A DNA stretch of 12,529 nucleotides from a virus, in the UHGV virus genome UHGV-1994978, one strand, 5' to 3'. Of the stretch, positions 2,404 through 4,036 are shown one piece after another. The position numbers were made by a program, and so were the translations under genes. Numbering within the stretch: the stretch's first letter is position 1; every line of letters starts with the position of its first letter. The notes under the pieces are model-generated. The model was not told where the DNA came from, did no database searches, and was given only the letters and a program-made list of their open reading frames with translations.

Positions 2404-2853
2404 ATGGCAAGAAAAGAAGCAATTCATAATAATCAGAAAGTAAAGGGAGCATTAAAAAATATAACATTACATGCCCTTTCCAAAGAAGCAAAAGATGTAA
2501 TGAGAAATCTAATTCAAGAAAGTGATTTTTTAGGTAAAAACAGAGTACCAGAAGAAGACGTGTATGCCATTGTTCGTAATAGTCCAGAGTTAAGCGAACA
2601 GCTAACATTTGAATATCTAAAGCTATACAGACAAACAAAAGGTATGAACTACCCGGATAGTAAATCAGCACGTGAGAAGTACAAGAGGATCGCTACGCTC
2701 ATTTCACAGGCATTCGAGCAACTACTGAACGATGGTGTACCCCTCAACATGATTGCAAAGTATAAGTCTAAGCAGTTGATGACAGACGAACAGAAAGCCG
2801 CACATCTAGAGATGTTGACCTGCTCCCCGTTGATTAGTACACCCCGATGTTAG
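2404..2853 (+). pseudogene. phage gene interrupted by IS insertion (N-terminal part; native frame ends at the IS junction 2815/2816, the last 12 codons are read from the IS inverted repeat)
   Basis: ORF with AGGGG upstream of ATG 2404; reading frame runs straight into the IS left inverted repeat. Confidence 0.5.
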
Positions 2854-2858
2854 TAATG
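2816..2858. repeat. IS left terminal inverted repeat
   Basis: TGACCTGCTCCCCGTTGATTAG...GTTAGTAA aligns with the reverse complement of the right end. Confidence 0.7.
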
Positions 2859-2886
2859 TCTTCATAAGCCACATGAGGACATCCCC

Positions 2887-3150
2887 ATGAAGAAGCGTTT
2901 TTCCGACGAACAGATCATCAGTATTCTCCGCGAAGCCGAAGCTGGGGTACCCGCCCGTGAACTCTGCCGCAAGCATGCCATTTCCGATGCCACGTTTTAC
3001 ACCTGGCGTAAGAAGTATGGCGGTATGGAGGTGCCTGAAGTTAAGCGCCTGAAGTCGCTTGAGGAAGAGAACACCAGACTCAAGAAGCTGCTTGCCGAAG
3101 CCATGCTGGATAAAGAGGCGCTTCAGGTGGCTCTTGGGCGAAAGTACTGA
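2887..3150 (+). CDS. IS3-family transposase OrfA (helix-turn-helix and leucine-zipper part)
   Basis: [46 protein letters not shown]... is the typical IS3/IS407-group OrfA pattern. Confidence 0.9.
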
Positions 3151-3173
3151 CGACAGACCAGAAGCGGGAAGCC

Positions 3174-4007
3174 GTGATGTTGATGTGTGATGCGACCGGT
3201 CTGTCGCAACGTCGTGCCTGCAGGCTTACAGGTTTATCCCTGTCGACCTGCCGCTATGAGGCTCACCGTCCGGCTGCTGATGCGCATTTATCAGGGCGCA
3301 TCACTGAGCTGGCACTGGAGCGCAGGCGTTTTGGCTACCGTCGTATTTGGCAGTTGCTGCGCCGTGAAGGGCTTCATGTTAATCATAAGCGCGTGTACCG
3401 GCTTTATCACCTCAGTGGCCTGGGCGTAAAACGCAGAAGACGTCGTAAAGGGCTGGCAACAGAACGTCTGCCGCTGCTCCGTCCGGCGGCGCCCAATCTG
3501 ACCTGGTCGATGGATTTCGTCATGGACGCACTTTCCACCGGTCGCAGGATCAAGTGTCTTACCTGCGTCGATGATTTCACAAAGGAATGCCTGACGGTCA
3601 CTGTTGCCTTTGGGATTTCAGGCGTTCAGGTCACGCGTATTCTGGACAGCATTGCACTGTTTCGAGGCTATCCGGCGACGATAAGAACTGACCAGGGGCC
3701 GGAGTTCACTTGCCGTGCACTGGATCAATGGGCCTTTGAGCATGGTGTTGAGTTGCGCTTAATCCAGCCGGGCAAGCCAACGCAGAACGGATTTATTGAG
3801 AGCTTTAACGGACGATTTCGCGATGAATGTTTGAATGAGCACTGGTTCAGCGATATCGTTCATGCCAGGAAAATTATTAATGACTGGCGGCAGGATTATA
3901 ACGAATGCCGCCCGCACTCCACGCTGAATTATCAGACACCGTCTGAATTTGCAGCGGGCTGGAGAAAGGGTCATTCTGAGAATGAAGATTCCGACGTTAC
4001 TAACTGA
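3174..4007 (+). CDS. IS3-family transposase OrfB (DDE integrase-like catalytic domain), probably made as an OrfAB fusion by -1 frameshift
   Basis: OrfB frame is -1 relative to OrfA and open from 3114, overlapping OrfA by about 37 nt; rve-type catalytic region ([20 protein letters not shown]). Confidence 0.9.
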
Positions 4008-4036
4008 GTGTTGTATCTAATCGTGGGGGCAGGTCA
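3997..4036. repeat. IS right terminal inverted repeat
   Basis: Reverse complement TGACCTGCCCCCACGATTAG...GTTAGTAAC matches the left end. Confidence 0.7.

Follow-up and report, generated by a model that had tools for sequence, protein, structure and literature searches.

An intact ISSen4 copy at a probable internal deletion in a defective Escherichia coli prophage of the yeaG-mipA region

How does a complete bacterial insertion sequence (IS) come to lie beside tail genes in DNA that is filed as a virus? This question is raised by the UHGV virus genome UHGV-1994978, whose 12,529 nucleotides (nt), the whole stretch of DNA analysed here, are called the window in the following. Positions 2816 to 4036 had previously been described as an intact IS3-family element inside a phage genome and within a tail-gene operon, where it would mark either a recent transposition during propagation in an Enterobacterales host or an assembly chimera (the original prediction). 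We found that the element is ISSen4, which was already known, and we think it highly probable that this intact copy stands at an internal deletion of ~21-22 kb, extending from one site (site A) to another (site C), in a defective prophage located between yeaG and mipA of Escherichia coli.

The element has the following parts, IRL and IRR being its left and right inverted repeats.

2816..4036, plus strand: complete ISSen4, 1221 bp, of the IS3 family, IS407 group
2816..2860, plus strand: IRL, TGACCTGCTCCC..., imperfect to ~45 nt
2887..3150, plus strand: orfA, an HTH_Tnp_1 DNA-binding protein of 87 amino acids (aa) (Pfam PF01527, E 1.5e-23)
3141..3144, plus strand: A-AAG, the likely -1 programmed frameshift site from orfA to orfB
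3144..4007, plus strand: orfB frame, -1 relative to orfA, with HTH_21 and the rve/rve_3 DDE catalytic domain
3993..4036, plus strand: IRR, ...GGGGGCAGGTCA

The ends of the element, 5'-TGACCTGC and GCAGGTCA-3', are of the TG...CA type, and the limits at 2816 and 4036 are common to 16 other ISSen4 copies that were fetched from unrelated contexts. With 1221 bp, the element also falls into the size range of the IS3 family, about 1.2-1.55 kb. At the termini, 11 of the 12 outermost nt are complementary, and the imperfect inverted repeat reaches ~45 nt with two 1-nt indels. As a listed open reading frame (ORF), orfB spans 3174-4007 (277 aa); it matched rve (2.7e-24), rve_3 (1.5e-31) and HTH_21 in Pfam, and its DD(35)E triad is formed by D114, D173 and E209 of the listed ORF, with spacings of 58 and 35 residues. 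Elements of the IS3 family transpose with an OrfAB DDE transposase produced via a -1 frameshift, in a copy-out/paste-in process through a circular intermediate, and normally generate a 4-bp target duplication. The motif A-AAG comprises the last sense codons of orfA and lies inside the orfA/orfB overlap; from this overlap and the general knowledge of the family, we take it to be the probable slip site. An OrfAB fusion built at A-AAG gave an unbroken match to NCBIfam NF033516 (transpos_IS3) over positions 1-368 of 369, with 308.4 bits against a curated cut-off of 160 bits, and the next family, IS481, remained below its own cut-off. RefSeq likewise labels ISSen4 copies with 'programmed frameshift'.

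The segment is 100% identical (1221/1221) to hundreds of copies labelled 'IS3-like element ISSen4 family transposase' in RefSeq, and the name ISSen4 was taken from these RefSeq/PGAP labels. The isoform threshold of ISfinder is ~95% nucleotide identity or more, and the resemblance is far beyond chance. An ISSen4 match was present in 680 of 5,426 complete E. coli genomes and in 3,052 plasmid records from Klebsiella, Enterobacter, Escherichia, Citrobacter, Salmonella and others. In comparison with the RefSeq ISSen4 of Salmonella, E. coli, Klebsiella, Citrobacter and Enterobacter chromosomes and plasmids, the window copy has the same sequence, ends, orfA/orfB pair and programmed frameshift, so that the element itself is unchanged and the flanks alone differ, being without a 4-bp duplication. 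The copy is intact and is probably still active. Its G+C content is 0.535, whereas the flanks have 0.352 (left) and 0.395 (right). The original prediction was thus sound in what it said of the element, namely an intact IS3-family sequence with terminal inverted repeats, OrfA and OrfB in 0/-1 frames and a higher G+C content than the AT-rich surroundings; the element is foreign to the phage-derived DNA in which it lies.

What became of the DNA on its two sides is a different matter. Each flank carries a part of one gene.

2404..2815, plus strand: site A gene, 5' part, the first 137 of 156 codons, cut by the IS
4037..4219, plus strand: site C, 3' part of a DUF2163 minor tail protein gene, the last ~60 of 207 codons

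The window copy is preceded by ATGT and followed by GTGG, and there is no target-site duplication (TSD). Perfect 4-bp duplications were present in 10 of the 16 other ISSen4 copies that we read (TGGC, TCGC, CTCG, ATAG, GATG, ATGG, GATG, CTGG, ATGC and GAGT); they were absent in the remaining six, several of which are beside pseudogenes or in rearranged DNA. The ten duplicated sites yield a weak target consensus, NTGG/CA (here and below a slash marks a junction), and site C, GTGG/CA, agrees with it at all five weakly preferred positions, a weak indication with n=10. Because ATGT and GTGG do not match, the structure is that of a deletion junction and not of a simple insertion, and the placement at such a junction would explain why the window copy is without the usual 4-bp duplication.

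The empty sites in relatives lead to the same point. All close homologues of the site A gene have 156 codons. In the window, its open frame continues for 12 codons into the IS, to position 2853 (ORF 2404-2853), and the 99% identical protein P0001 (156 aa) runs on past the break as ...HLEM-LDSGADLQSLIDHLVAMKK. The native DNA at site A is GAGATGT/TAGATAGC in L012, L085, L086 and L087, four of the fetched relatives. At site C, the right flank begins at codon ~148 of the DUF2163 gene, whose first ~147 codons are missing; the homologues are 207 aa long and are named DUF2163 or minor tail protein. The native DNA at this site reads ...GATTACGTACAGGCA/GTGG/CAGACC. In the intact prophage contigs L044/L045, the complete gene lies at 9378-10001 with the site ...gattacgtacaggca/GTGG/cagaccc, and the sequence upstream of the right flank in L013-L048 is ...TACAGGCA. 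The two flanks are therefore not contiguous in relatives without the IS and belong to two different genes ~21 kb apart. A single empty site, for which the original prediction had suggested a search in related phage genomes, was not found: the left flank continues into its own gene in L012 and L085-L087, and the right flank is preceded by DUF2163 codons. The location in a tail-gene operon is correct for the right flank, which is a tail gene, but not for the left flank, which is an early-region gene brought there by a deletion junction without a TSD.

Some apparent continuities across the element were considered and rejected. Removal of 1, 2 or 4 nt at the junction rejoins the flanks in open frames, but these arise by coincidence, the halves being parts of different genes. 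At first, a 2-bp 'GT' duplication with a downstream ATGA stop/start overlap seemed plausible; it was ruled out by the 156-aa homologues. BLAST alignments of relatives ran on into the IS by its last 7 nt (4030-4036), but this was a gapped chance match, CAGG-CA vs CAGGTCA, and not shared sequence.

The amount of DNA missing between the two sites could be estimated from relatives, to which both arms of the window are very close. The left arm has 99.96% identity to intact E. coli copies, with one mismatch in 2,816 nt, and the right arm differs by one nucleotide over 8.5 kb from the intact L044/L045, the N run excluded. On the 3' side of the 156-codon gene, relatives have genes for an HNH protein, the large terminase and the portal, in an order kept in twelve viral contigs and in Cedecea. 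On the 5' side of DUF2163, intact prophages have genes for a protease-capsid protein, a Peptidase_S74 protein, a tail-tube protein and a 736-aa probable tape-measure protein, as well as two further genes. The interval from site A to site C amounts to ~21.7 kb, of which 9.7 kb lie between site A and the start of the portal gene, 1.5 kb are portal, 1.8 kb are capsid and 8.8 kb extend to site C. This figure was added up from contigs of Cedecea and E. coli and is not the length of one molecule, because the structural region is missing from all 5,426 complete E. coli genomes, which were searched for an intact prophage containing it. The estimate fits the related 35-36-kb viral contigs, in which the early gene is ~4.5 kb from one end and DUF6950 is ~10 kb from the other. 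Neither the ORF list nor Pfam showed a gene for terminase, portal, capsid, tail tube or tape measure in the window. We suggest from these comparisons that about 21-22 kb were deleted internally where the IS now stands, and that the packaging, head and tail-shaft genes were lost in this way. The remnant in the window cannot form particles.

Is it conceivable that the IS entered a functional phage genome by a recent simple insertion, while the phage was propagated on an Enterobacterales host? In favour of this, 20 ISSen4 copies with 100% identity to the window copy are present in each of E. coli C and WG5, a derivative of it, both of which are standard coliphage hosts, and two deposited coliphage genomes contain the same IS. 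However, there is no TSD, both interrupted genes are without their other halves, and the genes for terminase, portal, capsid, tail tube and tape measure are absent. Moreover, IS3 interrupts the integrase, a frameshift disrupts the tail-tip gene, and identical flanks run on into chromosomal genes of E. coli. Simple insertion into a functional phage, to which we give practically no chance, is already refuted. What remains of the recent transposition that had been proposed is the recent arrival, since the element is 100% identical to widespread copies and its flanks are at least 99.96% identical to uninterrupted relatives; a simple insertion during propagation does not agree with the missing TSD and the deletion junction. 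As ISSen4 is found in many Enterobacterales chromosomes and plasmids, the perfect identity reveals neither the host nor the time of acquisition.

The chromosomal setting was read from contigs that share the arms of the window. Where the right arm is identical to that of the window, a DUF2188 gene comes next, followed by mipA and yeaE with 99% identity to E. coli. In the intact left arms, a 644-aa serine recombinase gene is beside yeaG/prkA and yeaH. Two complete E. coli genomes (14EC007 and AREA_C483) hold related remnants between yeaG and mipA. Against 50,697 phage records, megablast with the window, tblastn with the truncated gene and blastn with the right arm gave no near-mode match to the flanks, and the distant mode returned only short stretches of the tail-tip gene with 70-75% identity. 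In the collection of species-representative genomes, the sole relative was 75% identical and came from Dryocola. Judged from these sequences, the window is part of a defective prophage in the E. coli chromosome, in the yeaG-mipA intergenic region. The phrase 'inside a phage genome' should hence be replaced: the IS lies in a chromosomal prophage remnant that has a split integrase, lacks ~21 kb and is without a near match in the phage records.

The prophage is damaged in at least three ways, by the ISSen4 deletion, by an IS3 copy that splits the recombinase gene and by a frameshift in the tail-tip gene. The last two concern the following features.

1..489, plus strand: serine recombinase (integrase), last 162 codons, cut at position 1 by an IS3 copy outside the window
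4613..7822, plus strand: tail-tip (J-like) gene, 1067 codons when intact, here in two ORFs

The recombinase end matches a 644-aa Resolvase/Recombinase gene at 5882-7816 of L012, to which window 1-2816 was aligned at 7328-10136, and the native sequence at window base 1 is ...gttaacggag/GTGCAGG. An IS3 end, ...GGGTAAGATCA, abuts window base 1 in L043, a contig with 100% identity to window 1-2941; this IS3 copy (L043 1-123) ends with ...GCTGGGTAAGATCA. The start of the window exactly at the IS3 boundary suggests the start of a short-read contig that was broken at IS3. In L044/L045, the tail-tip gene is a single 1067-aa gene with fn3 and Phage_Tail_Tip domains. A 1-nt deletion near 6362, where the window, L049 and L053 miss one A, splits it into ORFs 4662-6392 and 6650-7822; this frameshift is common to all IS-bearing sister contigs and absent from the intact L044/L045. 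The 5' part of the same gene contains 22 N at 4702-4723, in place of which identical contigs have 15 nt (AGCCGCGATTGGCTG) and L061 has 14. Because the N run alters the length, the ORF is artificially split there into 4613-4864 and 4662-6392.

The most likely route to the present structure is two insertions followed by recombination. ISSen4 would have inserted at site A, duplicating ATGT, and a second ISSen4 would have inserted at site C in the same orientation, duplicating GTGG. Homologous recombination between the two copies would then have removed the interval together with one copy, and the product would be a single IS between non-matching 4-mers; the order of the events and the recombination step are what we infer here. 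A one-step deletion is another possibility, in which the transposase of a single ISSen4 or of an IS dimer acts on a second site of the same molecule and deletes the adjacent DNA. It would leave the same product, that is one IS without a TSD between one old and one new junction, and the fit of site C to the target consensus of ISSen4 is as expected of a junction made by the transposase. However, copy-out/paste-in transposition of the IS3 family does not by itself delete adjacent DNA, and from the letters alone such a deletion is indistinguishable from recombination between two copies. We consider the one-step route unlikely, though still a serious possibility.

The junctions were also sought in public contigs. 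The left one, the site A flank followed by IRL, occurs in four of them, and the right flank is beside an IS end in 14, nine of which were examined. Several of the results weigh against the deletion proposed for the window. The right junction of the window type, IRR/GTGGCAG, is present in one public record only, L061 (OBVD01000657.1), and this contig is identical to the window outside the N run and is therefore probably its own source. A search for an independent junction of this type found none in viral contigs and one, again L061, in metagenome contigs. In all nine contigs examined, ISSen4 is reversed, and it is IRL that adjoins the G of GTGGCAG, at the same nucleotide. As the sole record is probably the source itself and the nine others are inverted, the contiguity at the right junction is without independent confirmation. 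An intermediate with a simple insertion at site A or site C, in which both halves of the target gene would remain, and one with two copies were not found in public data, of which representatives only were covered, and no junction of the native left side of site C with the IS was among the best 120 DUF2163 homologues (cluster representatives only). Finally, there is no host gene in the window, and its chromosomal context was read from contigs that are identical to it or nearly so.

The unconfirmed right junction brings back the chimera that was mentioned at the outset. The source genome could carry ISSen4 copies at both sites and keep the 21-kb interval, and the collapsed repeat could have been misthreaded by the assembler; the junctions expected are then IRR/ATGTTAGATAGC and ...CAGGCAGTGG/TGACCTGC. 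In addition to the lack of confirmation, it fits such an artefact that the window apparently derives from a metagenome contig, that its first base coincides exactly with an IS3 boundary, a kind of start typical of short-read contigs, and that the same left junction, in another assembly, is followed by only 126 nt of ISSen4 before the contig breaks. However, IRR/GTGGCAG would have to be present in the reads, because the sequence common to IRR and the inverted IRL is limited to their last 8 nt and a k-mer assembler cannot build this junction from one of the IRL type. A hairpin mis-join would place IRL, not IRR, at the junction. The assembler broke at IS3 yet crossed ISSen4, which suggests that the path through ISSen4 was unambiguous in the genome. 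Furthermore, sister contigs (L049) cross the whole IS at site C and have no structural genes, so the deletion there is real in the lineage. An assembly artefact is thus quite improbable in our opinion.

The reversed copies (L049/L052-L060) deserve a closer description. The contig L049 (22.5 kb) spans a whole ISSen4, which differs from the window copy at four positions and whose IRR end is joined to a different left flank. Only a 166-nt stretch of this flank, ~0.9 kb from the IS, matches DNA that was fetched, namely a Cedecea gene just upstream of the terminase. A likeness of the flank to an IS end (GTGGGGG) was no better than in shuffled controls and was discarded. The right arm of L049 is otherwise identical to that of the window, with the tail-tip frameshift included. 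When IS copies recombine, each flank always keeps the IS end that it faced before, and therefore the two arrangements need two insertions at the same nucleotide. Site C (...CAGGCA/GTGG/CAGACC) may have been hit twice, by two ISSen4 alleles with four single-nucleotide polymorphisms (SNPs) in opposite orientations, with 8.5 kb of identical background in both cases. It would be either a strong natural hot spot of insertion or the result of an insertion targeted to the resident end, followed by recombination that removed the first copy. We put this forward as a rather doubtful suggestion. Transposition targeted to an inverted repeat (IR) has so far been described mainly for IS911 in the laboratory. 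Targeting of this kind could explain two ISSen4 copies that abut one nucleotide in opposite orientations without an intervening duplication, but the native sequence on the left of site C resembles an IS end only weakly (CAGG-CA vs CAGGTCA). If true, the second option would be a natural example of IR-targeted transposition, and the fact that one nucleotide served as the target in both orientations gives a small hint of how ISSen4 chooses its targets.

The rest of the window consists of prophage genes on both sides of the element.

836..1192 (118 aa) and 1831..2331 (166 aa), plus strand: small early-region ORFs, no Pfam hit
4219..4620, plus strand: intact DUF6950 tail-tip gene, Pfam PF22262
7868..12529, no strand assigned: rest of the prophage right arm, with small ORFs, lysozyme, GIY-YIG and 'methyltransferase' genes
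9168-9617, minus strand: lysozyme, in the right arm
9658-10107: GIY-YIG SegE-like gene, between lysozyme and the late small ORFs
11819..window end: gene named 'methyltransferase' by RefSeq

The two small early ORFs follow the recombinase in the same order in the intact E. coli contigs L085-L088, with 99.9% identity. A protein identical to the DUF6950 protein of the window is encoded on 67 blocks of public contigs. In one contig, L055 (Logan DRR658787_32409), DUF6950 is cut after 62 codons and followed by the Mu-like genes HTH_Tnp_Mu_1 and DUF2730, a break that looks like the insertion of a transposable phage. The GIY-YIG SegE-like gene occurs in all relatives examined and is possibly a homing endonuclease. 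The family to which the prophage belongs is ~35-36 kb in size, has ~35-40% G+C, is siphovirus-like and uses a serine integrase. It is widespread in Enterobacteriaceae, including E. coli, Cedecea, Citrobacter, Serratia, Enterobacter and Dryocola, and has no close relative in the phage collection.

The remnants in 14EC007 and AREA_C483 belong to the same prophage family at the same yeaG-mipA site. Like the window, they have an IS at internal deletion junctions and have kept the right arm with the tail-tip, lysis and methyltransferase genes, but the IS elements or the breakpoints differ. The remnant of 14EC007 (L050, NZ_CP024131.1 2146588-2170067) is a diverged relative with 75-79% identity and a very similar deletion, which begins at the early small ORFs, stops ~100 bp short of site C on its upstream side and is bridged by a different IS3-family element; its recombinase gene holds another IS3-family element. 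This is convergent erosion that spares the right arm. In AREA_C483 (L051, NZ_CP123310.1 2163558-2184349), an ISSen4 with 99.8% identity abuts the equivalent of window position 8909 without a TSD, and the terminase genes are interrupted by IS5 and by a further IS3-family copy. Cryptic prophages that are riddled with IS elements and partly deleted are a common sight in E. coli as well as Shigella, and independent examples exist at this very locus.

The two deposited coliphages with the same IS at 100% identity, mEp234 (PV340539.1) and PhiR12_5 (PV340554.1), also carry it in phage-derived DNA. The copy of mEp234 lies between the int region and bet and is without a TSD, like the window copy. Both records are presented as complete temperate phage genomes, whereas the window is a chromosomal remnant. 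The record of PhiR12_5 starts inside ISSen4. A 3,036-bp record (PQ520124.1), named Enterococcus phage IME_EF3, has ISSen4 at 99.7% identity and therefore likely contains enterobacterial contamination or a misassembly.

Taken as a whole, the locus presents a known element and an ordinary case of prophage decay driven by IS elements. The significance of the result is mainly that of a correction, as a pipeline for virus finding, or a reader, could mistake an AT-rich window with tail genes for a phage with a rare IS. Target duplications and empty sites are to be checked before an IS is called 'inserted'. As for the prophages themselves, those with low G+C and a serine integrase at yeaG-mipA are absent from phage databases and common in gut E. 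coli assemblies.

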